Below, piece by piece: positions 33,072-64,000 of a DNA stretch of 64,000 bases. Origin of the DNA: Leucoraja ocellata (Eukaryota); the NCBI GenBank assembly GCA_036785375.1, contig JAWMAR010000076.1, forward strand, positions 7,812,001 to 7,876,000. Reading direction: 5' to 3'. The notes under the pieces are model-generated. The model saw only the letters and a list, made by a program, of their open reading frames with translations. It was not told the DNA's origin and searched no databases. Within the stretch, counting starts at the first letter, position 1. Every line of letters starts with the position of its first letter. Position numbers and translations under genes: made by a program.

Positions 33072-33501
33072 GTGTCCCACAGCTGAATTGTCTCGGCGTC
33101 CTGTTTAATTGAAGGAAGATTGGATGATATCTGCACAGGCAGACACGTCGGACATGTAAAGATATAAGGCCAGAGGTTCCATTTGCTTTGTGCTTGACAC
33201 AAGAAATGTTTATTATAAGGAACTTTTGGGATATGTGCATCAAGAAAAAACATCCCTTTCCACACCATTGATAAAAGTATAGGGAAAATAAGTGACATCT
33301 ACATTGAAGCTGGTTGATTGGATGCCATGTATCAGCTAGTTAGTTGCTTACCAATGTATGATACGAATTTAAAGACTATCAAGTATATGGAGACTTTCCA
33401 ATGGTTGTATAGACTTCCGCAAGTTATTGTTTACTGCTTTAAAATATTGCATTGATTGTTCAAATTGTTCAACTGCCTGTATATAGATGTTGCTGCTTTC
33501 T

Positions 33502-40775: not shown

Positions 40776-42582
40776 TAGGATAGGAAGTTTTATATGAAGT
40801 GACCGTATGTTGGGCAGAGAGGAGATGTGTAACGAGTAACCAAATTTTGCAAGCAACAATATCATCCTGAAATATGAATTTATTCACATTGGTAAATGTA
40901 TTTCTGAAGAGGAAGCCACCTCTAAATAAAACCACATCTGCTTATTTTGGAGGGATTATTTTTAATTGCATCACATTTATGATGAGAGTGCAGAAATTTA
41001 AGGGTGCCTCTGAACAAGAAATTGTGCAATCTGTCGAGTAACATATTTCAGAAGAGGGAGATTACAATATAAATGTCGGTATGGATTTCTGTTTTATCCT
41101 GTACACTTTTGCATTTTCACTGAAAAGGAAGTAATGAGGTTATAAACTAGCATTCTCAATTTTCCACTTTTGCCAGAAAGTTTCTCTCTGCCCTGTCCAA
41201 AACCTGTTACAAGTTTGACCACGGTCTGCAGGTTTTCAGTTTAGTTTAGTTTATAGATACAGCATGGTAACAGGCCCTTTGGCCAACCAAATCTGCGCCG
41301 ACCACCAATCACCCATACACTGGGTGGCACGGATGCACAGCGGTAGACTTGCTGCCTTACAGCGCAAAAAAACTCGGGTTCAACACTGAATAAAGTTGGT
41401 GTCTGTACATAGTTTGTACGTTCTCTCTGTGACCAAATGGGCTTTCTCCGGGTGCTCCGGTTTGCTCCCACACTCCAAAGACGTACAGGATTGTAGGTTA
41501 ATTGTCTTTGGTAAAAATGATAAAAAATTTCCTTAGTATGTAGGTTAGTGCTGGTGTACGGGATGATCACTGGTCGGCTGGGAATCGGTTGTCCGAAGGG
41601 CCCGTTTTCACACTATATCGCTAAAGGCTAAAGTAAAAGATTAAAGACTAGTTCTATCCTACATACTTGGGATAATTTACAGCAGCCAATTAACCCGGAT
41701 AGTTTTATAGTTTCCTGTAATCAGTATATATATTTGTTCTTCTATTTCCTGCTGGTTTTTGGAGGGCCCATTATATCATCCCGTCAGCATGATCGTGCCT
41801 TTGTTTATTGTGAACTCTACCCGCTGTGAATAAACTACCCATAGTGGATTAATCCTCTAGTACCTCTCCTAGTGCCACTGTGAACTTCTCCCTAATCAGT
41901 AATGCATTTCCTCCACCTCACAGCACAACTTTCAGCTTGATCGCCATCAGCAAAGGAGCACCTCAAGGCTGGGTGCTCAGCCCCGTACTCTGTACCCATT
42001 AATGTGTGGCCGGACACAGTTCCAACTTCATCTTCAAATCTGCCAACAACACCACCATAGTTGAACCAATTATGGATGATGATGAGTCAGAGTATTGGGG
42101 AAGATCGATCAACTGGCCAAATGGTGCCAAGAAACAGATCCACATCACCGTGGCCATACTCTCATCTCCCTGTACCATTAGGAAGAAGGTACGGGAGCCT
42201 GAAGGCTGTTACCTCCAGGTTGAAGAACAACCTCTTCCCATCAATCATCAAGTTCTTTAACCACCCTGTACAACCCTACTTCAGCATCAGGGGTGACTAC
42301 AATGATTTGCCCTCAGTACGTCTGAAACTTGCATCTGTGACCATCGTGGATGCATCCAGAGAGAATGGTGAAAACTACTCTGGTGGTCTGCCTACAGTTT
42401 GAGAGTAAATTTTCAGTGGTTTCCACTGCCCACTTTCCCCATGACTTCCTCTTTACACTCCACGCATTTGTGATAAAACAATCTTGTGGGGAAGTTGAAG
42501 AGGTCAGTCGCTTCAAAAACAGTAACGGGAACATCGGGTCTGAATGAACAGAAGTCTGATCGTTGAAAACCAAGTTTGCAAC

Positions 42583-42631
42583 ATGTTTGCACTGATATTC
42601 TCTACCTTGACTCTGTTCCTCTGTGCAGTGG
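42583..42631 (+). CDS. Putative leader exon of paralogous V-domain receptor gene 2
   Basis: MFALIFSTLTLFLCAV-G|gtaagtac shares the GTGG|gtaagtac donor context with the gene 1 leader. In-frame upstream ATG at 42544. ETS cores ACTTCCT (42444) and GGGAAGT (42489) upstream. Confidence 0.6.
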
Positions 42632-43289
42632 GTAAGTACAGTCCCAGGATGGGTCGCCCAGTCTGGGTTAGTTTCATCTGTTTTCAAGTTCAATTTACAT
42701 ATTGCAGTGATGTGTATCTACTATTTTACAGTTGAATATTTCTGTTTAAAATTGAGATGTTTTGTGTTCTTGGTTAGCTGTGAGAAGGACACTGAAGTGT
42801 TCTGCTGTGGGATTCCTACCAAGCATGGATATCAATTTGTTTCTCTGCTTTGGTAATCAAGGTTTAGAAGTCATCTGAGGCTGTTCTGGTTCATCTCGGA
42901 GAAAATTATTTATATGAAATATCAGAAGATAGGAATCACGTACACATTCGCAACCCACACTGTATCTATAAGAAATGCATTAAACAAATGCAAGAAAGAG
43001 TGGAGATTAAACACCCAGATGTAATGGAGGGAATAAAAGTAATGAGATGTGTGAAGGGGATATAATAACGGGAAGAGTGTTTATTTTTCATATGCAGCGG
43101 AAGTGGACTGGAGCAATTAAATTCTTACTTACTTGCCTTCGGCACATTCATCTTTTTGGAGTTTGTACGTTCTCTGTGTGACCATATGGGATTTCTCCGA
43201 GTGCTTTGTTTTCTTCCTACACTCCAAAAACATACACGTTTGTACAATAATTGGATTTGGTAAAATTGTAAATTGTCTCTAGTGTGCGG

Positions 43290-44495
43290 GATAATGCAGA
43301 GGATGCAATAGATGAGGATGGAGGAGGTGCAGGTGAACCTCTGTCGCACCTGGAACGACTGCTGGGTCCTTGAATGGAATCGAGGGGGTAGGTAAAGCGA
43401 CAAGTGTAGCATCTCTTGCGGTTGCAAGGGAAAGTGCCCGGGGAGGGGTTGGTGCGGGAGTGAAGGGAAGAATTGACCAGGGAGTTACGGAGGGAGGGGT
43501 CTTTGTGTAAAGCAGACAGGGATGGAGACGGGAAGATGTGGCGAGTGGTGGGGTCTCGTTGGAGGTGGCGAAAATGACGGAGGACTATTTGTTGTATGTG
43601 ACGGCTGGTGGGGTGAAAGGTGAGGACTAGGGGGACTCTGCCCTTGTTGAGAGTGGGGGGATGGGGAGAGAGAGCCGTGTTACGGGGTATTGAAGACACC
43701 CTAGTGAGAGCCTCACCTATAGTAGGGGAGAGGAACCCCCGTTCCCTGAAGAATGAGGACATTTCAGATGCCCTGGTGTGGAACACCTCATCCTTGGAGC
43801 AGATGAGGCGTAGACAGAGGAATTGGGAGTAGGGGATGGAGTCCTTACAGGAAGCAGGGTGGGAAGAAGTGTAGTCCAGATAGCCATGGGAGTCAGTATA
43901 TTTATGGTGGATGGCGGTCAGAAGTCTATCTGCGATAGAGATAGTGAGGTCAAGAAATGGTACGGAAGTGTCAGAAATGGTCCAGGTATATTTGAGTGCT
44001 GGATGGAAGTTAGTGGTGAAGCGGATGAAGTCAATGAGTTGTGTGTGGGTGCAGGAGGTGGCACCAATGCAATCGTTGATGTAGCGGAGGTAGAGGTCGG
44101 GGATGGGGCCTGGGTACATCTCGAACAAGGATTGTTCGACGTACCCTACAAAGAGGCAGGCATAGCTGGGGCCCATGCACGTGCCCATAGCTATGCCTTG
44201 TATTTGGAGGAAATGGGAGGAGTTAAACTAAAAGTTATTAAGGGTAAGGACCAGCTCCGCTAGGCGGAGGAGAGTATCTGTAGATGGGGATTGGTTGGTT
44301 CTCTGGTCGAGGAAGAACCGGAGGGCTTTGAGACCATCCTGGTGTGGGATGGAGGTATGGAGTGACTGGGCATCCATGGTGAAGATGAGGGGATGGGAGC
44401 CTAGAGAATGGAATGCCCGGAGATGACGGAGAGTGCCTGAGGTGTCTTGAACATAGGTAGGGAGGGATTTAACCAGGGGGGATATGATGAAGTTG
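43290..44495 (-). mobile_element. Penelope-like element (RT plus start of GIY-YIG endonuclease)
   Basis: ORFs 44228-44551 (TMDAQSLHTSIPH), 43217-44188 (MGTCMGPSYACLF, RYINDC, FLDL, VPLVLTFHP, CNRKRCYTC) and FTCTSSILIYCI. Confidence 0.9.
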
Positions 44496-45071
44496 AGATA
44501 TGTTCCTTTTTCTTGCTGATGCTGAGAGCAAAATTCTTGTTCTGACACCACTGAACTAAATTATCGATCTCCCTCCATTACCCTCTCAGCATTAGCCATT
44601 ACTCATCCTAGGATGGTGGTATCATCATAGAATTTAAAGATGGCTTTGTAGCTGCAGCTGGCTACACAGTCACGGGTATACAGAGGGTAGAGCAGGGGTT
44701 TGAACACACAGCCTTGAGGTGCCCCTGTGCTGATGGAGCAGAGACCCAGATCCCTGAGTTTGGACAGGATAATGGTGTTGAACGCTGTGCCTAAATCTAT
44801 AAATCTATTAGGAGAGAGAAAATTGCCCAGGGAGAAATTTTGGCCCAATAACGAGATACAGGCAAAAGACTGCAGAGGCAGGATGGATAATAACACAAAA
44901 GCCAGGAACACTCAGCAGCTCAGAGCTGCAGGTGGGGAGAGAAACCGAGTTAGTTTCAGGCAGATTAACATTCATCATCATTCAATAAGGTTAAACCCAG
45001 GCAAGATTTTCAAATAGATCATGAGAAGAAATTCTGTATTCCACAACAAAAACTGACAGATTTTAACATAA

Positions 45072-45343
45072 TCATCATCATCATCATCATCATCATCGGC
45101 AGTCACTCAAAACGAGTATGACTGTCCTCTCCTCTCCACAGGGTCGTCTACATGTGGGTCTGCAGATGTCTGTAGAGGCCGATCCGCGATCCACACGCCT
45201 TGGTGCAACGTAGGCAGTGGAGACTGGCGGTGGTTGGTAGTCCTCGAGCCCCCTTCTCTCTCTCCTTACTTTGTCTCTGTGACACGGCGCAGTTCCATTT
45301 CGTGCAGCTCCTTCAAGCATGGATTTCCTCCTGGAACGCCTAT
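45072..45343 (-). mobile_element. RTE-like LINE 3' end with (GAT)n tail
   Basis: (CAT)n on the + strand preceded on the minus strand by a Cys/His-containing C-terminus; interrupted at 45344 by the hAT MITE. Confidence 0.55.
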
Positions 45344-46987
45344 CAGGGCCGGCCTTAAGCCCATTGGACCAATTGCTCCCAATTGGTCCCCGTGCCTAAG
45401 GGGGCCCCGCACTTCAGTAGTCTACTCTCTGCTTGGGTAGATCTACCCTGGGTGGAGGGGGGAGAGAGGGGTGGAGAGAGTAGAGGGGTGAAGGAGGAAG
45501 AAAGGGGTAGAAGGGGAGGGGAGCATGAGGGGGAATGGAGAAGGGGGAGAAGGGGGAGAGGGGGAGAGGGGGAGATGGGTCATTCCCTCACGGTCCCAAG
45601 GCAGTGCTCCCGCCCCTCCAGTCGCCGTGCTTCACACACACAGCCCTGGCTCCACCCTTCTTTCTCCCCAGAGAGATGCGGTGAACAATACAAGGAAGGC
45701 TGGGCCTGGGGTTGGAGCAACATTTACAAACCTCGGCCTCAGCTCACACCCGTTCGCCCGGACCCCGGCATCCACTCCCGCCGCCGGCCCTCTCCCTCCC
45801 TTCTCTCCTTCCCTTCCCTCCCTCCCTTCCATATAACCATATAACCATATAACAATTACAGCATGGAAACAAGCCATCTCGTCCCTTCAAGTGCGTGCTG
45901 AACACTTATTTTCCCCTAGTCCCATCTACCTGCACTCAGACCATAACCCTCCATTCCTTTCCCATCCATATACCTGTCCAATTTATTTTTAAATGATAAA
46001 ATCGAACCTGCCTCTACCACTTCCACTGGAAGCTCATTCCACACAGCTACCACTCTCTGAGTAACGAAGTTCCCCCTCATATTACCCCTAAACTTCTGTC
46101 CCTTAATTCTCAAGTCATGTCCTCTTCCCTTCTTCCNNNNNNNNNNNNNNNNNNNNNNNNNNNNNNNNNNNNNNNNNNNNNNNNNNNNNNNNNNNNNNNN
46201 NNNNNNNNNNNNNNNNNNNNNNNNNNNNNNNNNNNNNNNNNNNNNNNNNNNNNNNNNNNNNNNNNNNNNNNNNNNNNNNNNNNNNNNNTTCTCTCCTTCC
46301 ACCCTTCTCTCCCTCACTCACTTCTCTCCTTCCCTCCCACACACACACATAACGCACGAACAACTAACACGCACACATCNNNNNNNNNNNNNNNNNNNNN
46401 NNNNNNNNNNNNNNNNNNNNNNNNNNNNNNNNNNNNNNNNNNNNNNNNNNNNNNNNNNNNNNNNNNNNNNNNNNNNNNNNNNNNNNNNNNNNNNNNNNNN
46501 NNNNNNNNNNNNNNNNNNNNNNNNNNNNNNNNNNNNNNNNNNNNNNNNNNNNNNNNNNNNNNNNNAGGCCCAAAGGGTAGAATGCGGCTGAAGCCCAAAA
46601 TGTAATGCCTGGACTGGTTTTTCGCCAATAATTATTGGTTTTCCAGGATCTAGTTAATTACATGACTTTTTTTTTCATTTCACAGTTAATAAAACAAGTG
46701 GTATTGTAACTATGTACTTTGCAGAGGTGATCTACACATTTTGCTTGTTACTTGTAGGCTTACATATATACAATTTTACATTAAAATGTAGCTTAGATCT
46801 GTTTGGTCCATTAACTCGCTGGCACTTTTTAAGCGCACATTTTGATTACTTTCCATTCTACCATAGAGATATAAAGTCTATAATAGACTGTATTTATATT
46901 TCTATGATTCTACAGACCTTGGCTGGGAACCTGGGGCTCACCAAAATTGTTCCCAATTGGGCCCCGCACCTCCTAAGGCCGGCCCTG
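45344..46987. mobile_element. Non-autonomous hAT (Tip100-like) element
   Basis: TIRs CAGGGCCGGCCTTA / TAAGGCCGGCCCTG with an imperfect 8-bp TSD (ACGCCTAT / ATGCCTGT). Contains a CR1 3' end (~45830-46125) and two gaps. Confidence 0.75.
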
Positions 46988-48639
46988 ATGCCTGTCCAAT
47001 GTGCTCCTAGTTGCTCAGAATTTCTTCAGACTGTTCTTGATGATTTCTTCAGACTGTTCTAGAACATACAGAGTAATGAGTATGACTCATACAGCACGGA
47101 AACAGGGTGTGTAGGAAGAACTGCAGATGCTGGTTTAAACCAAAGATAGACACAAAATGCTGGAGTAACTCAATGGGTCAGGCAGCATCTCTGGAGAAAA
47201 AGAATAAGTGACGTTTTGGGTCGAGACCCTTCTTCAGATTGAGAGTTAGGGGAATGGGAAATGAGGAATATAGATGGTGATATGGAGAGATGTAGAACTA
47301 GGATCAGTCTAACCCATCTGTGCTGACCAAGATGCCTTGTCTAAGCTAGTCATATTTGGCCATGTTTGCTCACATCCGTCAAACCCTTTCCTAAATGTGT
47401 TTGTCCAAATGCCTTATAAATGTTGAATTGCACACGACTCAAACACTTCCTCTGTCAGCGTGTTCCATGTGCAAAACACCACCTACAGGCCCTCTAAACC
47501 TATGCTCTCTTGTTTTTGATTACCCTCCCCTGGGAAAAAAGACTGTGTGCTTTCATCCTATCTATGTCCCTCATGATTTTGTACACCTCAATAAGATCAC
47601 CCCTCAGGAATAAGGAAATCCCCATATGGAATAAAGTCCTTGTTTACCCGACCTCTCCTTATAACACAGTCTCTCGAGTCCTGGCGACCTCCTTGTAAAT
47701 AATTTCTTTACTTTTTCCAGCTTAACATAAGTTATACAAAATAAATTATTTATCAGAAACATTGATGGACAAACAATTACCCAAGACCTGTTCCTTTCCT
47801 GCCCAGGATATGAAAAGAAATAAGCAAGCTAGTTGCAGACACATTATAATTTTCCAAACTTTTCTACATTCGATAATTATACTCCTGGGTTGGAAAATTA
47901 AACTGGCCCTGTGTAAATGTTGTGTTATCCTTGTACTTGTACTGAAGCCCTATAACAAAACAGTTACCACACTGTACGAGCGTGTTTGCTTTCAGTAACT
48001 GATGTTTAGATGCATCAAAGATCCTTTCTAATCAGCATTTCCCAATCCATGACAACTAAGAAATTGACGATTCTGCAAACATGCAATAAAACCACCAAAC
48101 GCTGGAAACCCTCAGCAGGTCTGTCTGCATCTGTGGAAAGAGAGACAGTACACATTTCAAGCTGCAATCTTTGCTCAGAACTGGGAAAGATAAAATGTAA
48201 TAATAAGGAACCACAGATGCTGGTTTATACCAAATATAGACAAGATGCCGTAGTAACTCAAGTAGGCCAGGCAGAATCTCGGGGAAAAATTGGAAAGGTG
48301 ACATTTCAGGTCTGAAGAAGGGTCCTGACCCAAGACCACCTGAGATGCTCCAGCAATTTGTTCTATCTTAAGAGAAAAAAAAGTTTGTTTTGTGTCGTAG
48401 AGAATGCGAGGGTGGGATGGAAAGGCCAAAGAGAATATCTCTGATGTGGAAAGACCAAATTGGTTGATGCAACAAGTTGGAAAGAGATGGTGCTTCCTTG
48501 TCTATATATGTGTTGCTGATAGCTGGGCAGGCTGTGCTAATGGAGAGAGAAAAAACTAAGACAAAGTCACAATTGGATGACTGGCAGAAATGGAGGGCAC
48601 TTGCAGAACTTGCTGCTTCTAAGCTTCAACCCTGACTGA

Positions 48640-49370
48640 TTCTACACCTTGCTTTTCTAAGCAAATGTCCTTCATCATAATTGCTCCGTGGGAAAGCTCA
48701 TTAATAATATGGGGCTGACGGGGATGGGAGATGAGGACAAGAGGAACCCTATCCTTGTTCTGGGAGGATGGAGATGGAAAGAGAGCAGAAGTGTGAGACT
48801 TGTCAGCAGTCACAGTCTTTTTCACAAGCTGAGAGGAAAGAGATAGCGAGCTCGGTAATATAGAGTGAAGACCGCAACTTCTCCCTCATGATCTGTAATG
48901 GTGATTAAACTTTTGTCGATATTGCCTCCATTTAATTTACAGGAAGGATTTCATCAGGTTCCGAATATGTGAGCACACAAAATATCAGGTGACTTTGAGA
49001 GATAAGAGACAGAGAGGTTGCATAATTGGCAGGGCATGTCAAATGGCAACCCTTGATAATCCTTAGAGACCTGCACTTTTAACCTGATGGGGGAATTCAG
49101 AGTTATATACAAAAGCAGAATCAGCTGGTGTAGACTGAATGAATAGCCCAATATTCTGAAAACATTTGTCAGTGAGACTGCGACAGAAATGAGAGAAACT
49201 GAGTCAATAGATCAGACAGTGACCTGATGAGGTTCAGCCATGTTCACAGACACTACTGAGTTAGGCAGTGGTGCAAGTTACCAAGACACAAACAGAGTCA
49301 TTGAGTGGCCAGACTGCGGAAGATGGAATTTATTGATGGAAAATCTAATTTAGATCCATCAACATCAATG
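48640..49370 (+). repeat. Left arm of a ~0.7-kb inverted duplication (partner ~60515-61275)
   Basis: For example CATTGAGTGGCCAGACTGCGGAAGATGGAATTTATT (49.3 kb) vs AATAAATTCCATCTTCCATAGTCTGGCCACTCAATG (60.56 kb); colinear in reverse orientation throughout. Confidence 0.8.
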
Positions 49371-50199
49371 CATTTTATCAAAAGGCTATTTTATGACATT
49401 GTTAGCTGGTATATACTTATTAATTATTTAGTCTTTTGTACACCCTCTTTACTCTTTTGCTCTCCATTTACTGTTCTTACAGAATCTTTTCGGATTCTCA
49501 TTTACTTACCTGCCAAAGCTATCCCATGTCCTCTTCTTGAACTCTAAATTCCCCTCTTGTGTACTAGAGTCCTTAAACTCATCAAGGGATTTGCTTAATC
49601 CCAAACTAACCACAATTCATGCACATTGTAGGTGTCCCTCTATACCCTGCCTGTTGATGTGTCTTTCTGAATTCCTCTGAAACATTCTTTCATATCTACT
49701 TTCACCATTTACCTCAGCAGTACTACCCTGTGTAAAAAAAATTACCTTGTAAATCTCCTTTGAACTTTTGCCCTCTAACCCTTAAAGCCGTGTCCTCTAA
49801 TATTTGATGTTGTCATTCTCGAAAAGGGCTGTTCATCTACTCTATCTACACTTCTCATCATTTTATAAACTATCAGGTCAACCCTCAGCCCCCAATGCCC
49901 CAGAGAAAACAAAACATGATGTCCTCCTTATAGCTGATACACAGACAGATCCAGGTGAACCTTTCCTGCTCCTTCACCAAAGCCTCCTCATCTGTCCTGT
50001 AATGGAGCGACCTGAAGTGCACATAATACTAAATGAGGCCTAATTGGCTTTATAAAGCTGCAACATGACTTGTCAACTTTCATACTGAACACTATGACCA
50101 ATGAAGGCAAGTCGGTGTGGGTTTAGTATTGTCATGTGTGCTGAGATATAATGAAAAGCTTTGTTTCCAGACAAATCACAATTTCCATGAGTATAAAAA

Positions 50200-50935
50200 T
50201 AATAATAATAATAATACATTTTATTTATGGGCGCCTTTCAAGAGTCTCAAGGACTCCTTACAAAAATTTAGCAGGTAGAGGAAAAACATGTAAGGGGAAT
50301 GAAATAAATAGTAGAGACATGACTAGTACACAAAGTAAAGACAGAATTCAATACAAAACACAATATGGCAATTAATGCACAGATGAAAAGGGAGGGGGAC
50401 GTGGGGCTAAGGATAGGCAGAGGTGAAGAGATAGGTCTTGAGGCGGGACTGGAAGATGGTGAGGGACATGGAATTGTAGATCAGTTGTGGGAGGGAGTTC
50501 CAGAGCCTGGGAGCTGCCCTGGAGAAGACTCTGTCCCCAAAACTGCAGAGGTTGTTCGTGGATGGAGAGGAGACCAGCTGATGTGGATCTGAGGGACTGT
50601 GAGGGTTGGTAGGGGGAGAGGAGGTCAGTGAGATATGGGGGGGCAGATGGTGGAGGGCTTTGTAGGTGAGGATCAGGATTTTGTAGGTGATCCGGTGGGA
50701 GATGGGAAGCCATTGAAGTTGTTTGAGGACTGGAGTGATGTGATGCCAGGATTTGGTGTGGGTGATGAGTCGGGCGGCTGCGTTCTGGACCAGTTGGAGT
50801 CGGTTGATGTGGGTGGAGTTGATGCCAAGGAGAAGTGAGTTGCAATAGTCCAGTCGGGAGGAGATGAAGGCATGGATGAGTCTTTCAGCAGCAGGAGGTG
50901 TGAGAGAGGGTCTGAGTTTGGCGATGTTGCGGAGA
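50200..50935 (-). mobile_element. L2 LINE 3' fragment
   Basis: Minus strand reads SRLDYCNSLL and QLVQNAAAR; (ATT)n tail at ~50200. Confidence 0.75.
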
Positions 50936-50937
50936 TA

Positions 50938-50970
<33 letters not shown>

Positions 50971-51182
50971 TTATTGGCCAAGTATTCACATACAAGGAGT
51001 TTGCCTTGGTGCTCCACCCACGTAACAATATGACATACAGTGACAGTTACGAATGACTCAGAAAACACTAAACATTAATAATTGATGAAATATTAATTAT
51101 AAAACACCATTGATCAAGCATGTGAACCAACAAAATACCAGATCAAAGGGAGGCTACAGAATTTTGGCTGTTGAGTAGAGCT

Positions 51183-52730
51183 CATGCATAAAATCTGTTT
51201 TTATGTTAGTGTAGAAATAGCAGGGGCTATGACAGAAATATTTCAAATGTCATTAGAAACGGGAATAGTGCCGGAGGATTGGCGTACTGTGCATGTTGTT
51301 CCATTGTTTAAAAAGGGGTCTAAGAGTAAACCTAGCAATTATAGACCTGTTAGTTTGACATCAGTGGTGGGCAAATTAATGGAAAGGATACTTAGAGATA
51401 ATATATATAAGCATCTGGATAAACAGGGTCTGATTAAGAACAGTCAACATGGATTTGTGCCTGGAAGGTCATGTTTGACTAATCTTGAATTTTTTGAAGA
51501 GGTTACTCGGGAAATTGATGAGGGTAAAGCAGTGGATGTTGTATATATGGACTTCAGTAAGGCCTTTGACAAGGTTCCTCATGGGAGGTTGGTTAAGAAG
51601 GTTCAATGGTTGGGTATTAATGGTGGAGTAGCAAGATGGATTCAACAGTGGCTGAATGGGAGATGCCAGAGAGTAATGGTGGATGGTTGTTTGTCAGATT
51701 GGAGGCCAGTGACTAGTGGGGTGCTACAGGGATCTGTGTTGAGTCCACTGTTGTTTGTCATGTACATCAATGATCTGGATGATGGTGTGGTAAATTGGAT
51801 TAGTAAGTATGCAGATGATACTAAGATAGGTGGGGTTGTGGATGATGAGGTAGATTTTCAAAGTCTACAGAGAGATTTATGTTGAAAGAGTGGGCTGAAA
51901 GATGGCAGATGGAGTTTAATGCTGATAAGTGTGAGGTGCTACATCTTGGCAGGACAAATCAAAATAGGACGTACATGGTAAATGGTAGGGAATTGAAGAA
52001 TGCAGGTGAACAGGGGGATCTGGGAATAACTGTGCACAGTTCCCTGAAAGTTGAATCTCATGTAGATAGGGTGGTAAAGAAAGCTTTTGGTGTGCTGGCC
52101 TTTATAAATCAGAGCATTGAGTATAGAAGTTGGGATGTAATGTTAAAATTGTACAAGGCATTGGTGAGGCCAATTCTGGAGTATGGTGTACAATGTTGGT
52201 TGCCTAATTATAGGAAGGACGTCAACAAAATAGAGAGAGTACATTTACTAGAATGTTGCCTGGGTTTCAGCAACTAAGTTACATAGAAAGGTTGAACAAG
52301 TTAGGGCTTTATTCTTTGGAGCGCAGAAGGTTAAGGGGGGACTTGATAGAGGTCTTTAAAATGATGAGAGGGATAGACAGAGTTGACGTGGATAAGCTTT
52401 TCCCACTGAGAGTAGGGAAGATTCAAACAAGGGGACATGACGAGAATTAAGGGACAGAAGTTTAGGGGTAACATGAGGGGGAACTTCTTTACTCAGAGAG
52501 TGGTGGCTGTGTGGAATGAGCTTCCAGTGAAGGTGGTGGAGGCAGGTTCGTTTTTATCATTTAAAAATAAATTGGATAGTTATATGGACGGGAAAGCAAT
52601 GGAGGGTTATGGTCTGAGCGCAGGTAAATGGGACTAGGGGAGAATACGTGTTCGGCACGGACTAGAAGGGTTGAGATGGCCTGTTTCTGTGCTGTAATTG
52701 TTATATGGTTATATGGTTATATGATTATAT
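51183..52730 (+). mobile_element. CR1 LINE RT region and 3' end, nested inside a Rex1-like 3' fragment (~50938-51182 and ~52731-53090, minus strand)
   Basis: ORFs 51184-51885 (NYRPVSLTS, DFSKAFD, QGSVL, YADD), 51879-52277 and 52253-52637; (TTATATGG)n tail. Confidence 0.9.
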
Positions 52731-53287
52731 GTCTGGCTGTGGCAGCTTTGACAGTCTGGAGTCACCTTCCAGAGGGAAGTGATTCAAAGATTTTGTTGCC
52801 AGGGTGAGATCAATGGGTCAGAGATGATCTTGCCCGCTCGCTTCCTGGCACTTGCAGTGTACAATTCATCAATGGAGGGAAGGTTGCAGCCAATAACCTT
52901 CTCAGCTGACGGGACGATTCGCCGCAGCCTCCAGGTGTCATGCTTTGTGGCTGAGCCAAACCAGACCATGATGGAGAAGGTGAGACCAGACTCTACGATG
53001 GCCATGTAGAATTGGACCATCATTGCCTGTGGCAGATTGTGCTTCCTCAGCTGCCGTAGGAAGTACATAATGTTGTGCCTTTTTGACTGTGGAGTCGATG
53101 GTAGCCCAGTCATACACAAGTACAACAGGTAGTGTAAAGAGAAAATTACCAGAGCACAGAATATAATGTTACAGCATGATAGCATTACAGTTATGGAGTC
53201 ATACTGACCAACTTGCCCACGCCAACCAACATGCCCCGTCTAAACTAGTCCCACCTGCCTCTGTTTGGCCCATATCCCTCTATACAA

Positions 53288-55258
53288 ATCAAGTCAAGTC
53301 AAGTCAAGTTTATTTGTCACATACACATACGAGATGTGCAGTGAAATGAAAGTGGCAATGCTCGCAGATTTTTGTGCAAAAGACAAACAACAAAACAACC
53401 AAACAAATTATAAACACAATCATAACACACATATTCTTTTACATAATAAATAATAGAAGGAAAAACGTTCTGTAGAGTTAGTCCCTGGTGAGATAGGCGT
53501 TTACAGTCCGAATTGCCTCTGGGAAGAAACTCCTTCTCAACCTCTCCGTTCTCACCGCATGGCAACTGAGGCGTTTGCCTGACCGTAGCAGCTGGAACAG
53601 TCCGTTGCAGGGGTGGAAGGGGTCTCTCATGATTTTGTTTGCTCTGGAGTTGCACCTCCTGTTGTATAGTTCCTGCAGGGGGGTGAGTGAAGTTCCCATA
53701 GTGCGTTCGGCCGAACGCACTACTCTCTGCAGAGCCTTCTTGTCCTTGGCAGAGCAATTTCCAAACCAGATGGTAATGTTACCGGACAAGATGCTTTCCA
53801 CCGCCGCTGCGTAGAAGCACTGGAGGATCCTCGGAGACACTCTGAATTTCCTCAATTGCCTGAGGTGGTAAAGGCGCTGCCTTGCCTTACTCACGAGTGC
53901 TGAGGCGTGTGATGCCCATGTCATATCCTCAGAGATGTGGACTCCCAGATATTTAAAACAGTTCACCCTATCCACAGGATCCCCATTTATACTCAATGGA
54001 GTGTACGTCCTCGGATGATGTGCCCTCCTAAAGTCCATGATCAGCTCCTTTGTTTTTTTGTTGTTCAAGAGGAGGCTGTTATCCTGGCACCAGAGTGCTA
54101 GATCAGCCACCTCCTCCTGGTAGGCCTTCTCATCGTTGTCTGAGATCAGGCCCACCACCACAGTGTCATCAGCAAACTTAATTATTGAATTGGAGCTGAA
54201 CCTAGCCACACAGTCATGTGTGTACAGGGAGTACAATAGGGGGCTGAGGACGCAACCCTGGGGCGATCCTGTGCTCAGGGTGAGGGACTTCGATGTATTC
54301 CCTCCCATCTTGACTACCTGGGGCCTGGCGGTGAGAAAGTCCAGGACCCAGGCACACAGGGAGGTGTTGAGCCCCAATTCCATTAACTTCCCGGCCAGTC
54401 TGGTGGGGACTATCGTGTTGAAGGCTGAACTGTAGTCTATGAACAGCATCCTCACGTAGCCCCCCTTCTGGCTGTCCAGATGGGAGAGAGCGGTGTGCAA
54501 GACCTGGGAGACCGCATCGTCCGTGGACCTGTTCGGACGGTATGCGAACTGCAACGGGTCCATGTTCCGAGGGAGAAAGGCGCAGATGTGATTCTTCACC
54601 AGCTCTCAAAGCATTTCATGACTACCGAGGTAAGGGCCACCGGACGGTAGTCATTCAGACAGGCTGGGGAGGCATTTTTTGGTACTGGTACAATGATGGA
54701 TTTTTTGAAGCAGGCAGGGACCACGGACTTGTCCAGGGAGAGGTTGAATAATGTAGTGAGCACTGGAGCTAGCTGCGTAGCACAGGACTTGAGTACTCGC
54801 CCCGAGATGCCATCGGGGCCTGCAGCTTTTCTCGTGTTCACCCGTGTCAGTGCCCTCCTCACGTCGTGCTCGGACAGCGAGAATGTGTGCACACTCCTCC
54901 CTTCAGCTTCGGTAGCCAGCCCCCTGTCGGTATTGTCGATAGTCGGCAGACCTGGAGTGGTGTTGCCCCTCTCAAAACGAGCGTAAAAGGAGTTCAGGTC
55001 GTCAGCTAGGGAGGTGCCGGCACTTGCGGATGAGGGAGGTGTGCTTCGGTAGTTGGTTACAATCCGTAGCCCCTGCCACAGGCTTCTGGTGTCCTGCTGC
55101 TCCATCTGTAACTCCATCTTGTCCCTGTACCTTCTCTTTGCGTCCTTCACTGCCCTTCGCAGTTGGAAGGACTCTGCCTTGTAGACGTCCATGTTTCCTG
55201 ATGCCAGGCCCGAGTTGTAGGCAGCGGTACGAGCATTCAAGGCCACACGAACAGACCT
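53288..55258 (-). mobile_element. Rex1/Babar LINE, 5'-truncated, near-intact RT
   Basis: ORFs 54596-55393 and 53478-54599 ([38 protein letters not shown]) with a single frameshift; (TTGAC)n tail. Confidence 0.9.
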
Positions 55259-57102
55259 CAAGTACCTGTCCAAATATTTTTGAAACATTATGATAAAGAC
55301 AGCTACCTCCTCTGGCAGCTCCTTCCATACACCTACCACCCTTTGTGAAAAAACATTGCCCCTCAGGTTCCTGGTAAATCTTTCCCACCTCACCTTAAAT
55401 CTATGTCCTCTGGTTCTTGAAGTTACAGAGAAAAAAATCTTAAAATCGGCAATGAGATAATTTGGAAGATTGAGCCGACACCCCAGCTTAAGGGAGTTAT
55501 GTTCAGTAGTCTGATAACAGTGGTGAAGAGCTTGTTCCTGAATCTGGTGGTATGTAGTTTCAAGCTTTTAAATCTTCTGCCCGAAGAGAGAGGGAAGAAG
55601 AGGGAATAACTGGGGTAAAAAAGATCCTTGACTATGTTAGCTGCCTTCCCAAGGCAGCATGAAGTGTAGTTGTAGTCGATGGGAGAGGGTGGCTGAATTG
55701 TAATAAACTGTAATCCACAACTCAACAATATCTTGCAATCTTGGGTAGACGATGCCAAACCAAGCTGTGATGCATCTTGCTAGGATGCTTTCCACAATTC
55801 CAGCAAATCTTTAATGCAGTGCCTAATATTTCTGTCTCAATAGACACAAAAAGCTGGAGTTACTCAGCGGGTCATGCAGCATCTCTGGAGAAAAGGAATA
55901 GGTGATGTTTTTTAGGTTTGAGACGCTTCTTTGGTCTGAAGATAGGTCTCGACCCACAATGTCACCTAATTTTCCAAAGATACTGCCTGACCTGCTGAGT
56001 TACTACAGCTTCATAAAGACACAAGTGTGCAGATGCTGGTTTATACCAAAGATAGACACAAAAAGCTGTGGAATTCTCTGCCTCAGAGGTCGGTGGAGGC
56101 CGGTTCTCTGGATACATTCAAGAGAGTGCTTGATAGGACTCTATAAGATAGCGGAGTCAGGAGATACGGAGAGAAGGCAGGAACCCGGGTACTGATTGGG
56201 GATGATAAGCCCAGATCACATTGAATGGTGGTGCTGGCTCGATGGGCTGAATGGCCTACTGCACCTATTGTCTATTGCCTTTTTGTGGCAGTGATTCCTG
56301 TAACTTCCTTTGATGGTGGGGAGGTCAGAATCCATGATGGACTGGGCAGCGATCACCAGTTTTTGCAATTTTCTTCACTCCTAGGTGTTTGAGTGGCCGA
56401 ACCCTGATGCAACCAGTCAATATGTTCTCAACTGTATATCTGTAGAAGTTCAAGAGTTAAAATGGACTTGCAAGTTACTTTTTCTAACTATTAAGCAATG
56501 AGGAACACGTTATTTTGAAAAATGTTTCAAAATATGGATTGTAAAAGGCAGGTCTCTTTCTTTCGGTAACTAGGGTGCTAGGAAAAGTTTAAACATTCTC
56601 TAAGTGTGGGGGAAATTCAGGAGAAATCGTGGCAGAATGTCCACATTTGTGCCCATCAAGCAGATTGTTTATAGGAGTGCAGGATAGATGTCAAGAGTCA
56701 AGAGTGTTTTATTGTCACATGTCCCAGATAGAACAACATTCTTTATTTCATCAGCACAACAGAATATGTAAACATAGTGTACTGTAAACAACATAATAAA
56801 TGAGAAAAAGGGTTCAGTGTGTGTATATATACATAAATATCTGAAGAAAGATCTCGACCTGAAAAATCACCCATTCCTTCTCCCCGCGGATGCTGCCTGC
56901 CCCACTGAGTTACTGCAGCTTTTTGTGTATATAATGCCATGCAATGCGTTCACTTATGTTCTCGGCTGGTTTCGACAAGATACTGTAAATACTGGTCTGT
57001 TGGATCCTGCACTCTTTGCAGAGCACAATGAAGTCGGCTGACTAATTGACTGTGCGGATTGCTACTCAATAGCCAACAGTATGGGATGGGGGGATTTTGC
57101 CC

Positions 57103-57839
57103 ATCTAAATAGTGGTCGATTAGGAAAAGGGGAGATGCAACGAGACCTGGGTGTCATGGTACACCAGTCATTGAAAGTAGGCATGCAGGTGCAGCAGGCA
57201 GTGAAGAAAGGGAATGGTATGTTAGCATTCATAGCAAAAGGATTTGAGTATAAGAGCAGGGAGGTTCTGCTGCAGTTGTACAGGGTCTTGGTGAGATCAC
57301 ACCTGGAGTATTGCGTACAGTTTTGGTCTCCTAATCTGAGGAAAGCCATCCTTGCCTCAGAGGGAGTACAGAGAAAGTTCACCAGACTGATTCCTGGGAT
57401 GGTAGGACTTTCATACGAAACAAGGCTGGATAGACTCGGTTTGTACTCGCTAGAAATTAGAAGATTGATGGGGAATATTATAGAGTCTCACAAAAGAGGT
57501 TGGACTGGCTAGATGCAGGAAGATTATTCCCGGTGTTGAGGAAGTCCAGAACAAGGGGTCACAGTTTAAGGATAAGGGGATGTCTTTTAGGACCGAGATG
57601 AGAAAATCATTTTTTACACAGAGCGGTGAATCTGTGGAATTCTCTGCCACAGAAGATAGTTGAGGCCAGTTCATTGGCTATATTTAAGAGGGAATTAGAT
57701 GTGGCCCTTGTGACTATAGGGATCAGTGGGTATGGAGAGAAGGATACTGAGTTGGATGATCAGCCATGATCATATTGAATGGCGGTGCAGGCTCGAACGG
57801 CCAAATGGCCTACTCCTGCACCTATTTTCTATGTTTCTA
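57103..57839 (+). mobile_element. CR1 LINE 3' fragment with TSD TGCCC
   Basis: RDLGV...HLEYCVQFWSP; TGCCC at 57098-102 and 57840-44. Confidence 0.85.
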
Positions 57840-57971
57840 TGCCCTTGTTTTTCCTTATTAATTAACTTGAGCAATTGATGGGTCCGAATTTGAGGTCGTT
57901 CCATAAACATACCGTCTGCGGTGCAGTGTAAGACCGCTTCCAGTTTACACAGAGCCTGCCTTCCCAGTAAC

Positions 57972-58316
57972 ATAGAAACATAGAAACATTGAAAATAGGT
58001 GCAGGAGTAGGCCATTCGGCCCTTCGAGCCTACACCGCCATTCAATATGATCATGGCTGATCATCCAACTCGGTATCCCATCACTGCCTTCTCTCCATAC
58101 CCCCTGATCCCTTTAGCCACAAGGGCCACATCTAACTCCCTCTTAAATATAGCCAATGAACTGGCCTCAACTACCTTCTGTGGCACAGAATTCCACAGAT
58201 TCACCACTCTTTGTGTAAAAAAAGATTTTCTCATCTTGGTCCTAAAAGACTTCCCCCTTATCCTTAAACTGTGACCCCTAGTTCTGGACTTCCCCAACAT
58301 CGGGAATAATCTTCCT
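57972..58316 (-). mobile_element. CR1 LINE 3' end with TSD TAAC
   Basis: RTRGHSL...FFTQRVVNLWN; TAAC at 57968-71 and 58317-20. Confidence 0.85.
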
Positions 58317-58860
58317 TAACGGCAGTGGGTCTGTTCTAGAGATTATAAAAGTATCAGTGCGGGACTGGATACCATCCCTGTTGGGCGTTCCCTTGCTGTT
58401 GCTCCAGAGGGACGGAAGCGTTATTTTGTCCTTTAATCTTAAAGTTATATACAGCAGTACAACTATAACTAACAACACGACCACATGCTTTGCGTTATAG
58501 ACACAGACCCTTATTTCCATCTTTGTTTATTATCTGCTTCCTCCTTCTATGGGGGTTGGTGTATTTTCACTATCTATCCATTTCTTCATCAGAGATAGCT
58601 TAAAGCTTCCCCCGTACGGCAAATCTCCGTTTGACCAATCATACAGATCGCTACTAAAAGTTACCACGTACAGTATCGGTCAACTCCGGTCTCTTTTATT
58701 CCAACATCAGCTGGTGATCCCGGCGTGATGGGGTAGATGCTTAGATGTTTGCACTTGTGAGAGAATCTTGACTGAGGGAACATATTACAATAAATGCCCG
58801 GTCATTTAAAACACTAAGGTGTGTAGACATTTTTGCAGAGAGTAGTGAATTTCTGAAATT

Positions 58861-59165
58861 GGGCGGCACGGTGGTGCAGCGGTGGAGTTGCTGCCTTACA
58901 GCGCTTGCAGCGCCAGAGACCCGGGTTTGATCCCGAGTGCGGGTACTGCGTGTACAGAGTTTGTACGTTCCCCACATTACTGTGTGGGTTTTCTCAGAGA
59001 TCTTCGATTTCCTCCCACACTCCAAAGGTGTACAGGTTTGTAGGTTAATTGGCTTGATTTAAGTGTTTATTTAGGATAATGTTAATGTGCAGGGATCGCT
59101 GGTCGGTGCGGACACAGTGGGCTGAAGGGACTGTTTCCGCTCTGTATCTCTAAACTACACTAAAC
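58861..59165 (+). mobile_element. HE1/V-SINE-like SINE (well preserved)
   Basis: GGGCGGCACGGTGGTGCAGCGG head, B-box, conserved core and (TAAAC) tail. Confidence 0.8.
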
Positions 59166-60514
59166 TCTGCCTCAGGGAGTTGTAGAAGCTAGACCATTTA
59201 AAGTACTTAAGGTGGAGGGAGACAACCTTTTGAGGGATCGGGAGAATCGAGGTCGATTGTGCACAGAGGATGAGATGAGTTCTAGGCAGATCAGCCATGA
59301 TCATATTGAATGGTGAGGGAAGCTTGAGGGGCCTGGTTAAGAATTACCTACTTCTCTTTGTTGAGGGATCAAAACACAGTGAACCAAAATTAAAAATAAT
59401 TGTAGAAGCATTGGAGGCATGATGAGGGATAAAAGATCAGCAGAAAGTGGGAGGGGTTGAGAAGTAGCTGCTTGAGTGAAACAGGATGACGGATGCTGAG
59501 AGGTTTTCTGAATGGAAGGCTCTGTGGATTGGTTCTTCCCAGCCTCTTGCTTCTTGTGAGCTTTAGAAATGATTCTTTTGATTTGAACATAAAATACCAA
59601 ATTTATGAATCTTGCAGATAATATCAAAAATTGGCAGTGTTACTGATAGTGAAGAAGAATGTTTGCTGCCACTGGAGGGCAGCACTAGATTGTCCATTGA
59701 TTGGGTGGCATGTGGAATTCAATCCAGAGAAGTGTGAAGTGATCGATGGACATAACATGCTGCAGTAACTCAGTGGGTCAGGCAGCATCTCTGGAGAAAA
59801 GGATAGGTGGCATTTTGGGTTGAGACCCTTCTTCAGACCAACTTCAGAACTTCTTCGTGTCTGAAGTAGGGTCTCGACCCAAAATGACATCTGTTCCTTT
59901 TCTCCCAAGATGCTTCTGACCTGCTGAGTTACCAGAACATTTTGTTTCTATCTCCAGTGTAAACCAGCATCTGTAGTTCCTTCCTACACTCTTTGTCTGT
60001 TCCACTGTGAAATCTCCTCAAGGTAGGCCTATTTCAAAGAGGTTATCCTCTGATGGGAGTTCTGCAACACCCTTTCTCGCTGCTATTCCTCTGTGGCTGA
60101 AGAAGAGTATCGACCTGAAACGTCACCTATTCCTTTTTTCCAAAGTTGCTGGGTTACTCCAGTATTTTGTGTCTACCTTCGGTGTAAACCAGCATCTACA
60201 GTTGCTTCCTATACACAGTGAAGTGATAGACTTTGGGCAGGGCCAACTTGGTTAGCTCCTTGTAGCCAAATCCCCTGATGGCATCTGGGCATTCTGGATC
60301 AGAGCACACCACCACTCCTTTGGGATTGGCATTAGAGAGCAACTGTACACTGGAAGATCCTGAAAAGATAAAACTATTGTTTAAAATCAGTGGTGAGTAA
60401 AGGTAACTCTGGCATGAATGATAGATTGGGATACATGAATAATTAATTTACATATACCACCAAACGATGTTCAAAATAACTGGGATGACATGCGTTAAGA
60501 AGAGAGTGGTTTGA

Positions 60515-61275
60515 TATTGATGGATCTAAAATATATGTCGACATATTTCCCCGCAATAAATTCCATCTTCCATAGTCTGGCCACTCAATGCCTCTGTCTG
60601 TATCTTTGTAATTTGCACAACATCCTCTGCTTCCTAATTCAGTCGTGTCTGTAAACATGGAATATCACGTGAACAAGTGTGAACATCCGGTCACTGTCGA
60701 AACTATGAACTGAGTTTCACTCGCCACTTTGCTGTCTGACCCGCTAAATGCTTCCAGGATTTTCCTTCAGATCTGATTTTGCTTTTATATATAACTCTGA
60801 ATTCTCCCATTTGGTTAAAAGTGCAGATCCCTAAGGATTACCAAGGATTGCCATTTGACACACTCAGCGAATCATGGAACTTCTCTGTCTCTTGTTTTAC
60901 AAAATCACCTCATATTTTGTGTGTTCACATTTTTGGCACCTAATGAAATCCTTTCTGCAAATTAAATGGAGGCAATATCCACAACAGTTTCATCATCATC
61001 ACTGACAATGAGGGAGGAGTTGTCGTCTTTAAGCCATATTACTGAGCTCTCTATCTCCTTCCCCTATGTCCGTGAAAAAGACTGTGATTGCTGACAAGAC
61101 TCTCAACAGTTCATGTACCAAGTCTCACATTTCTGCTCTCAATCCCTGTCCGTCCACCCAGAACAAAGATAGGGTTCCACTTGTCCTCATCTCCCACCTC
61201 TGTCAGTTCCACATTGTTAATGAGGGTTTTCCCACAGAGTAATTGTGGCAAAGGACATTGGCTTAGAATAGCAGA
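60515..61275 (-). repeat. Right arm of the inverted duplication (partner ~48640-49370)
   Basis: Reverse-complement matches such as ATTAAATGGAGGCAATATC vs GATATTGCCTCCATTTAAT. Confidence 0.8.
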
Positions 61276-63773
61276 TTCCCACTAGTCACAGAACTCCAGC
61301 CAGAATATCTTCCTTCCACACCCCTGCGTCTTCTATGAATAAGCCATTTCTGAATGCATATGACCAAGTCATCGTGAATTCTAGACATCTTACATTTCTG
61401 GATCAGCTTATCATGAGAAAATTATCAAAAGCCTTATTAAAATCCATGTCTACAACATCCTCTGCCTAACCTTCATCAATTAATAGTGCAACTCCTCCAG
61501 TACATTTACCTCCCTCTCAACCACACTTGAAACATCAAAAACCTGGAACATTAAGCTGCAAGTTATGTCCTGTTTGATAGCTTGATATAAATGATTATCA
61601 TATCATAAGATCATGTGATAGGAGCAGAATTAGGTCATTCAGCCCATCAAGTCTACTCCACCATTCAATCATGGCTGATCTATCTCTCCCTCCCAACCCC
61701 ATTCTCCTGCCTTCTCCCCATAACATCTGACACCCGTACTAATCAATATTGTTATCTGGATGAGAAAACAGGAGAGACACTTGGGTATAAAGAAGGGGGC
61801 GCTGCAGTGGCAGCAGCCTGTCAGCAGCACGTTAGTTTTTTCAACTTTTTTAATTTTTTTAGTATGTTTTAAAGTATGTTTTTTAATGTTTCTCGGTGTG
61901 TTTTGTGTGGGGGGGTAAGGGGGAAACCGCTATGGTCGCCTCCTCCACGGAGAGGCGACTTTTTCCAGGTCGCCTCCCCCGTGGCCTAACAGCAAGGATC
62001 GGCGCGGCCTTTCCCGGAGACGCGCCCGGGGCTTCAGCGGCGGGTGCAGCGTGGACTCTCGGCGTGGAGCGGGTGAGCCCTCGCTGGGGCTCGCTGGAGG
62101 AGAGCGCTCCGTTTCTCTGGCCCGGGGCTGCCGGCAGCCTGAAGCAGCGGTCTGCAGAACTCCAGCTGGTGCGGCGTCTACAGCCCGGGATTCCTCGTGG
62201 GGGACCCGGGGGAAGAAGAAGCCATCACTGCTGGCCCGCGGCCAACTTCTACCGCGGGGCCGGAGGGGAGCTTCGACCATCGGCCCTGCGGTCTGCGGTG
62301 CTTCTGGCTGCGGCGCGGCGAGAACCTTAAATCTTCGACCGCCGGCCTGCGGCCTACACCAGCCTGAAGCCGCGGTCTCCGGTGGGGCAGAGCCGATCCT
62401 GGACTTACCTTGACTTTGACTTTGTCCCTTACCATCTGGACGCCTGCAGCAACGGCTGCGGAGGTGGAGGTCCCGACCACGGGGGAAAACGGAGGAGGTC
62501 TGACCACGCTCTGTGCCTTCCACCACAGTGATGAATGCTGTGGTGGATGTTTGTGTAAAATGTTTATTGTGGTTGTGTGTTCTTTATTACTGTACCGCTG
62601 CTGCAACCCAATTACCACCGACCCNNNNNNNNNNNNNNNNNNNNNNNNNNNNNNNNNNNNNNNNNNNNNNNNNNNNNNNNNNNNNNNNNNNNNNNNNNNN
62701 NNNNNNNNNNNNNNNNNNNNNNNNNNNNNNNNNNNNNNNNNNNNNNNNNNNNATATAAATTAGGAGAGGAAAGGGGCAAGAAAAAATATCACTGACAGTC
62801 AAAATTAAGAAGAATCCCAAGGATTGAACAATTGTATTAGAGTAAGAGGGTAACCAGGGAAAGAGTAGGAGCCAAGGAAAGTGAGGGCTGTTGCAAAGAA
62901 CAATGGGGACCCGGCATGGGGTGGACTGCATTGAGGGACAGTGGGCGAACAAAGTGGGAACTTTAATTTTAGGATCCTCTTCTGCGTTTGTTTGTTTTGT
63001 TTGTTTGTTCGTTCTGGTTAAGGCGCTGTGCACACGCCAGCCAACAGTTGCTTTGCTTTTTCTTTTTTTCACTTTTAATTTCAAGTATTTGTGTACCTTG
63101 TGTGTTGTGACTGTTGGCAGAACAATTTCCCTCCGGAGATGAATAAAATGTTATCGTATTGTATCATAAAACTGCTGCCAGATGCTGTGAAGTTTTGTAT
63201 CTTCTGCCCGACAGGACAGGGGACAAATAGGAATGACAGGGGAGAGAATGGTCTTTCACTATGTTGGTTGCTTTCCCGAGGCAGCGTGGAGTGTAGGGTA
63301 GAGTAATTGTCAAACTAGGCTGTGATGTAATCAACAGGATGCTTTATGCGGTCCATGTGTAGACATTTGTAAGAGCTGTTGGAAGCATGCTGAATATCCT
63401 TAGTCTTCTTTATCTGACTCTGCAACAGAATCTTACATATACTAAATGAATGTTACTAGAACTGCTAGCTTTGTTCCTGATTTACTGCTCTGTTTAACAC
63501 ACTGTGTACAGTCAACAAGCATTTACATGGAGCAGGATTTAACCTTTGGTATTCAGTGTTTGTACTTTTGAGCTGTTGCTTTTACCAAAGATATTGTTTG
63601 TAATTTCAGTGCAGAGTGAAAGAGCGAAGCTCAGGAGAAAACAAAAGAGTTTACAAATTGAGGATACATGTGCAGAACATTCATGAATATCCAAGAGCTT
63701 TCATGCTGCCAGTCATTTTAAATTATTTTTGTTGTCATCATCTGTTCTGATCTTTGGTTGTTATTACCCATAG

Positions 63774-64000
63774 GTCTAACAGCAAACACAGTCATGATCC
63801 AATCCCCAGGAGCTCTGGTGGTGCGTGAAGGTGAAACAGTGGAGATACGGTGTGTCCTGAACAGCACCAATGTGAAAGTCATTGTGAAATCATTCCACGT
63901 TCACTGGTACAACTCACGTAATGGAGGAATCAAACTTAGTCTTTTGGTCAATGGCATCACTTACAGGTCACTGGGCTTCTCCGAGCGATTTCAGCTTTCC
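63774..64000 (+). CDS. Paralogous V exon, gene 2 (truncated by the window end)
   Basis: ccatag|GT CTA... encodes GLTANTVMIQSPGALVVREGETVEIRCVLNSTNVKVIVKSFHVHWYNSRNGGIKLSLLVNGITYRSLGFSERFQLS, colinear with the gene 1 V exon. Confidence 0.9.

Follow-up and report, generated by a model that had tools for sequence, protein, structure and literature searches.

What kind of receptor does a skate build from germline-joined variable (V) and joining (J) segments, and where do such genes come from? The question is raised by a 64,000-nt stretch of Leucoraja ocellata DNA (assembly GCA_036785375.1, contig JAWMAR010000076.1, here C76, positions 7,812,001 to 7,876,000 of the forward strand), which we call the window and which holds one V-J gene (gene 1) followed by the leader and part of the V exon of another (gene 2). 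The answer that we favour, and consider probable, is that these are genes 1 and 2 in a cluster of five non-rearranging genes for paired V-J receptors, which are related to the sigma-2 class of light chains and likely derived from a germline-joined light chain. It draws on observed features, namely the arrangement of the exons, their open frames, two types of tail, a replacement excess in the V1 loops and the tree grouping, and on a mechanism taken from motif families.

Structure of the cluster and of gene 2

We found five genes on C76, and all models (5/5) are open and have AG/GT ends, except for one GC donor in gene 5. Writing L for the leader and omitting the transmembrane (TM) exon, gene 1 is L-V1-tail A, gene 2 is L-V1-V2-tail A, gene 3, which is inverted, is L-V1-V2-V2-tail A, gene 4 is L-V1-V2-V3-V2-V3-V2-tail B and gene 5 is L-V1-V2-V3-V2-tail B. 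A germline J-like strand (FGxGTxLxV) is present in the V1 exon. Tail A combines YEN with YMDL-x7-YGHL/I, a sequence resembling an ITAM (the tyrosine-based activation motif of immunoreceptors) and divided between Y-M and D-L by a phase-0 intron, as the motif of ITAM genes likewise is (PMC2832619). Tail B carries VYSTV, ILYADI and TEYAAI, that is, a motif like the inhibitory counterpart (ITIM) and an exact switch motif (ITSM). Genes 1-3 are predicted to be activating, and genes 4-5, located 113-237 kb beyond the window end, inhibitory.

Paired receptors are clustered genes whose ectodomains are almost the same and whose tail motifs are opposite, and the five genes conform to this. The tandem multigene cluster that an initial annotation of the window had proposed is borne out by these further copies downstream. 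Its suggestion of paired activating and inhibitory receptors holds for the cluster, which has both tail types, but not for genes 1 and 2, which are not such a pair since both have an ITAM-like tail. A second contig, C5, carries the same exons in the same order and is likely the other haplotype, because most collinear blocks differ by 1-2% from C76 and a flanking gene also has a second copy there. The gene 5 TM exon (window-equivalent 294331) has a GC donor on C76 and GT on C5.

The leader of gene 2 had been placed at 42583, 21 kb upstream of its V1 exon, and this placement was upheld on several counts. RefSeq models P0011 (Leucoraja) and P0217 (Amblyraja) splice a type-B leader to V1, each contig has four type-B leader copies, each upstream of one V1, and the 21 kb interval contains homologous blocks in the same order as intron 1 of genes 4 and 5. 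A nearer leader was rejected, as the 42583 exon is the most hydrophobic, and the sole uncharged one, of 13 candidates running from an ATG to a phase-1 donor (33200 to 63700). Furthermore, the window has two copies of the 10-mer AAAGAGGAAG (23587 and 42445), each about 130 nt upstream of a leader ATG, where 0.24 occurrences are expected and 2 of 100 shuffles reach two, the pattern having been picked after the promoters had been seen. Its ETS core, which we take to be a PU-box/PU.1 site, is also found upstream of the gene 4 and gene 5 leaders. The 42583 exon is a predicted leader of gene 2 that is well supported by homology. The claim that transposable elements had inflated the intron behind it fared less well: two reverse transcriptase (RT) frames do lie inside, but repeats cover 39% of it, as they do 32-41% of three intergenic stretches, and length is a family-wide trait, with all eight introns behind a type-B leader spanning 11.8-26.2 kb. 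The promoter and leader region of gene 2 (window 40237-60000 against C5:281488-300271) is only about 90% identical between contigs, as low as paralogues, and window 43200-60000 is without collinear alignment to C5; we read the region as an old or converted haplotype block.

The V1 exon of gene 2 follows an ATAG acceptor at 63770-63773 and opens with the frame LTANTVMIQSP...SERFQLS from 63774. Traced beyond the window it is a stop-free exon of 351 nt with the donor GTGAGT, and the V2, TM and tail exons come after it, so that the whole model, L-V1-V2-TM-tail, is open over 349 aa and ends in four tail exons encoding the ITAM-like tail. The gene has two V domains (V1 and V2) rather than the single one first described, and pieces of a decayed V3 and a second V2 sit between its V2 and TM exons. 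All framework motifs quoted earlier are present, and identity to the V of gene 1 is 64%. In the first complementarity-determining region (CDR1), the two genes differ as had been claimed (KVIVKSFHV versus NYTVEKYQG). The reported shortening by four residues is real, but it falls in the C-C′ loop after HWYNS and not in CDR2, which has 6 aa in both genes. The longer C-C′ loop is retained in the Leucoraja paralogue P0016 despite a gene-2-type framework.

The predicted V1 fold (pLDDT 90.7, against 49.8 for an earlier model) matches antibody V domains, a match that speaks for a V fold only, because light chains were part of the input alignment and antibodies are abundant in the PDB. One contig from run X1, which we guess to be RNA, skips exactly the V1-V2 intron (GT..AG); the V1 of its source organism differs from gene 2 at 38/353 bases, and 154 extra letters of the contig past the V1 acceptor have no match to the intron. 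Two raw RNA runs of unknown tissue, of which about 5-6% was read, gave no V1 reads and almost no V2 reads and were not used as evidence. A heptamer-like string in V2, CACAGTG, encodes C-T-V, is without a nonamer and was taken as chance.

The closest proteins are those of Leucoraja, Amblyraja and Rhinoraja, and 105 of 106 V2 homologues name a shark, ray or skate, the other being without an organism name. Callorhinchus has members too, including a V-V-V-TM form, and the family is therefore older than the shark-chimaera split. Sharks and rays alike have both tail types, which are present together in 12 of 23 species sets (116 proteins, strict patterns, species assigned by hand from database labels). 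RefSeq labels are mostly "uncharacterized", with some automatic SIRP-like or pIgR-like names that are inconsistent across orthologues. We found no account of the family in a literature search that left aside subscription journals, figure alignments and supplements, and it is apparently undescribed.

Loop variation and likely gene conversion among V1 tips

Next, we compared the proportions of replacement (pN) and silent (pS) differences by region, using the eight V1 exons of genes 2-5 on both contigs (28 pairs; 24 CDR and 92 framework codons) and omitting gene 1, whose V1 is four codons longer. In the V1 CDRs pN was 0.239 and pS 0.068 (bootstrap pN-pS 0.11-0.23). The framework gave 0.052 and 0.040, with a bootstrap interval that includes zero, and pN fell below pS in V2 (0.037 and 0.067, 16 exons) and V3 (0.023 and 0.036, 6 exons). 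The replacement excess lies in the V1 CDRs and V2/V3 are conserved, in line with the loop-focused variation initially proposed. Pooled over the four allelic V1 pairs, CDR differences came to 50.7 replacement and 3.3 silent.

The tips of activating and inhibitory genes are closely matched. On C76 the V1 nearest to that of activating gene 2 belongs to inhibitory gene 5 (13 differences, with gene 2's own allele at 15), and on C5 genes 3 and 4 form the nearest pair (10 differences). Eight nucleotide states, six of them in CDR1, are exclusive to genes 2 and 5 of C76, the next partition having 4, and the single run to survive correction is a framework run that gene 2 of C76 shares with gene 5 of C5. 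Gene conversion among the V1 tips is likely, though not proven.

Under the mechanism that we propose, the tip domain V1 would bind a variable ligand through its CDR loops, with the V2/V3 repeats as a conserved stalk. Self ligand bound by V1 of genes 4-5 would engage SHP-type phosphatases through the ITIM-like/ITSM pair and dampen leukocytes, and in genes 1-3 the ITAM-like motif would bring in Syk-type kinases. For genes 2 and 3 the likely origin is a fusion in which an inhibitory gene gave the 5′ half and gene 1 the tail; gene 2 has its leader type, intron-1 blocks and V1 type in common with genes 4-5 and retains the V3 and second-V2 remnants ahead of its TM exon. Both may be counter-receptors that serve as decoys for pathogens abusing the inhibitory members, such that a mimic on the same tip would trigger Syk. 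Mimic binding of the shared tip would then drive loop diversity, and gene conversion would be the likely means of keeping activating and inhibitory tips matched.

The loops could instead owe their diversity to allorecognition or homophilic adhesion, with alleles matched to a polymorphic self ligand such as major histocompatibility complex (MHC) class I. Two alleles of a V1 are 13-22 residues apart out of 116, a distance that many paralogue pairs do not exceed, and gene 1 is near-monomorphic (Table 1), both of which this explanation would accommodate. Activating copies with the same tip as inhibitory ones suit a decoy race, compare CEACAM1/3 (PMC2832619), and we regard loops not driven by pathogens as somewhat unlikely, the two explanations not being mutually exclusive.

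Kinship with sigma-2 light chains and the origin of the family

In a search of 1.84 billion representatives, immunoglobulin (Ig) light chains and V arrays rank directly after the receptor family, and one cluster member in that search is named Igsigma-2. The true sigma-2 V-J-C loci of the assembly, on contigs C94 and C230, carry a constant (C) exon, and the sigma-2 V on C94 is 104/116 identical to a named Leucoraja type I light chain. With a sigma-2 V as the query, 17 V2-type exons of the receptor cluster (89-96 bits) come directly after the query's own three loci and outrank all else (best 87.2), in a ranking against lambda, sigma, heavy-chain and T-cell receptor (TCR) V for which 150 of 469 candidates were scored. 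The sigma-2 V loci in the assembly number at least three (C94:6734315, C94:6842705 and C230:195609); at least 89 type I light-chain clusters are given for the little skate (PMC2192082).

Trees agree with the searches. The group of receptors and sigma-2 was supported in three trees (99/95, 98/94 and 89/89), as was receptor monophyly (100/99, 100/99 and 91/81), and a quick tree of 93 rows supported the grouping at 82. Class labels in the trees were assigned by eye, save for named sequences, UrIg is not among the sequences, and the smaller trees exclude long-branch rows (NITR-like, TIM-like, nectin-like, one TCR-gamma and several receptor rows). Furthermore, V2 and V3, though not V1, have the CDR1/CDR2 lengths of 8/7 known from sigma-2 (PMC5985310). 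The kinship of the receptor V domains with sigma-2 V is well supported, and it is a link that the initial annotation had not seen. Two light-chain-like V-J-C proteins, one of Xenopus tropicalis (P0190) and one of Chiloscyllium punctatum (P0099), stand beside the receptor and sigma-2 group and are possibly unrecognised sigma-2-related genes.

That the receptors derive from a germline-joined light-chain gene is likely, with the direction of descent not fixed. The same kinship could be seen if the family were a relic, itself not rearranging, of the V-J gene invaded by the transposon of the recombination-activating genes (RAG), UrIg-like or as proposed for NITRs; the sigma-2 likeness would then consist of old shared features, and the genes would still be paired receptors. 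A position of the receptors basal to all rearranging receptors was not rejected (p-AU 0.16 and 0.43), a grouping of light chains without receptors was only borderline rejected (0.051 and 0.047), sigma-2 monophyly was not rejected (0.43), and the largest tree, in which support drops to 89/89, puts the receptors sister to core sigma-2 and not within it, next to a long-branch Xenopus V-J-C protein. Sigma-2 sequences of gar, coelacanth and turtle were sought for the tree and none was retrieved. The Callorhinchus members, too, fit an ancient relic. Yet all three careful trees place the family within the Ig/TCR radiation, flanked by light-chain-like V-J-C proteins, and its reciprocal best match is one light-chain class. 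Light-chain descent is likelier because the best trees have the receptors surrounded by such proteins, because the family has a range limited to cartilaginous fish and because the locus, with CHRNA2-like and ZNF395/704-family neighbours, differs from those of UrIg and UrIg2, which lie in the MHC and in an antigen-receptor complex (PMC12227049). The relic explanation we judge unlikely. Far less probable still is that we are dealing with a diverged member of a known family, be it NITR, SIRP, CD28/PD-1 or pIgR/CD300/MDIR, whose sigma-2 likeness is due to convergence or old gene conversion. The ITIM-ITSM tail does resemble those of SIRP-alpha and PD-1, some members bear SIRP-like or pIgR-like automatic RefSeq names, and ESM Atlas ranks an immune-type-receptor cluster first (0.94) and a PD-1 cluster second (0.93), a generic V-set likeness. 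All five models, however, lack both the six-cysteine I domain and a C1 domain, the NITR-, SIRP-, NCR3- and CD300-like V domains are distant in the trees, the RefSeq names disagree between orthologues, and CD28-family genes are single-V with other neighbours (PMC11599192).

Several further points weigh against the paired-receptor account as a whole. The leader-V1 junction of gene 2 is a prediction from homology. At -1 to -3 the ITAM has no acidic residue, and the last position of the ITIM is I, departures from the consensus in PMC2832619 that make both of them only "like" motifs and leave the ITSM as the one exact fit. Ligand, cell type and signalling are predictions from sequence motifs, and the haplotype status of C5 is deduced from mismatch level and the duplicated flanking gene. 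The pN/pS comparison is a counting method biased by recombination, with CDR limits drawn after the sequences had been seen, and the conversion tract of genes 2 and 5 has a p value of 0.011 alone and of 0.31 corrected for 28 pairs.

We nevertheless lean, by a little, to the proposal that cartilaginous fish reverted a germline-joined light-chain gene to an innate receptor, with loss of the C domain, gain of ITAM and ITIM/ITSM tails, and CDR loops diversified by selection and conversion instead of RAG. Such a reversion would date to more than 400 million years ago.

Known receptor systems and genomic surroundings

SIRP proteins combine V-J with C1 domains and share with PD-1 the ITIM-ITSM tail layout; the receptors described here have no C1 exon, and SIRP-like rows (labelled by eye) fall outside their group. 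MDIR are multi-domain paired receptors of skates, with CD300/pIgR-like domains and without J; a skate V of CD300-like type (L088) branches far from the receptors, MDIR itself being compared by description only. In marsupial TCR-mu a pre-joined Ig V exon was captured by another receptor, which remains rearranging.

Sigma-2 (sigma-cart, type I, NS5) is the nearest V-domain relative. Both have a split leader and hold V and J in one exon, as do all skate type I genes (PMC2192082). Unlike sigma-2, the receptors are L-(V)n-TM-tail with 1-6 tandem V, tyrosine-motif tails and no C1 constant exon, their CDR3 has 6 residues and the V1 CDR1 12, and VH-pairing residues are partly lost. The NITRs of ray-finned fish are like them in having germline V-J exons in clusters, both activating and inhibitory members and fast V evolution (bioRxiv 2021.06.11.448072), but the receptors lack the six-cysteine I domain by which NITRs are defined (V2 has two cysteines in most copies and V3 three), their activation motif is in the tail and not a charged TM residue, and NITR domains are elsewhere in the tree. 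The likeness to CEACAM1/CEACAM3 extends to ITIM/ITSM members with intrinsic ITAM-like partners, the phase-0 ITAM intron, one inverted gene and shared ligand-binding tips (PMC2832619); the V type differs (C23-W41-C104 and a J strand in the skate receptors), and common ancestry is not claimed. UrIg and UrIg2 are likewise non-rearranging elasmobranch V-J genes with a split leader and repeated domains homogenised by conversion, but UrIg2 joins one V-J to C1 domains in an antigen-receptor complex (PMC12227049), whereas the receptors are V-only with paired tails at another locus. CD28/PD-1 differ from the receptors, which have 1-6 V domains and no CDR3 proline, and the excerpted part of PMC11599192 mentions no CHRNA2 synteny for the CD28 family.

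Table 1. Features of genes 1 and 2. Positions past 64000 are window-equivalents; the C76 coordinate is the window position plus 7,812,000.
Feature	Position	Strand	Remarks
PU-box-like ETS site, gene 1 promoter	23587..23596	-	
Gene 1 leader exon, type A	23714..23765	+	matches leaders of Pristis P0017, Mobula P0009/P0022
Gene 1 V1 exon (V-J, 363 nt)	25113..25475	+	97% identical on other contig
Decayed 3′ piece of V1-type exon	25903..26034	+	stop-containing
Gene 1 TM exon	30241..30375	+	
Gene 1 tail exon 1	30541..30614	+	YEN motif
Gene 1 tail exon 2	32149..32190	+	ends Y-M (first half of ITAM-like motif, phase-0 intron)
Gene 1 tail exon 3	32281..32323	+	D-L, 7-residue spacer, YGHL
Gene 1 last coding exon	33061..33112	+	two possible acceptors 4 nt apart, short with either
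PU-box-like ETS site, gene 2 promoter	42445..42454	-	
Gene 2 leader exon (predicted), type B	42583..42631 (49 nt)	+	16 codons + 1 nt; phase-1 donor GTAAGT
Gene 2 intron 1	42632..63773 (21,142 nt)	+	12,897 nt on other contig
LINE-type RT fragment, gene 2 intron 1	51175-51882	+	
LINE-type RT fragment, gene 2 intron 1	53481-54605	-	
Gene 2 V1 exon (germline V-J)	63774..64000	+	truncated by window end; full exon to 64124
Gene 2 V2 exon	65503-65847		
Gene 2 TM exon	84436-84570		
Gene 2 tail exons	84736-84809, 86913-86954, 87045-87087		last exon from 90791

In gene 1 the hydrophobic TM stretch carries a single Glu close to its inner end, whereas that of genes 2 and 3 is uncharged. Upstream of gene 1 lie a large CHRNA2-like exon (window 13925-15238, +; 232 bits to alpha-2 against 212 to alpha-4), farther upstream of it an FAD-binding exon, and a LINE (long interspersed nuclear element) fragment with endonuclease and RT domains (window 5064-7113, -). 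About 20-30 kb past gene 5 are DUF4772 (ZNF395/704-type) exons (L027:601-2992, -) and an exon of a PAG/LIME-like tyrosine-motif adaptor (L027:9135-9890, -; weak Pfam match, E 0.0006). The genes flanking the cluster presumably correspond to human 8p21.

A sixth relative lies about 670 kb off (C76:8539466-8550094, L037-L039; also C5:871890-876900). It has a diverged V exon followed by a single 1,988-codon frame in which a V2 domain (91% identity with V2 of the cluster) is joined to a long Asn/Gly/Ser-rich stalk; Rhinoraja P0251 is a 1,999-aa model of this type with a TM segment. Besides this gene, no further diverged members of the family were found elsewhere in the genome.

To our knowledge, few activating or inhibitory leukocyte receptors have been described in sharks and skates. 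With this family, sharks and rays have a conserved ITAM/ITIM pair and allelic diversity like that of KIR, which makes natural-killer-type or decoy recognition testable in these animals. Germline V-J receptors are usually taken as relics from before RAG, and a light-chain origin, if true, would be a reverse route from adaptive to innate immunity. The sister relation to one light-chain class would mean either this reverse route or a new candidate relic, and both bear on the origins of antigen receptors.

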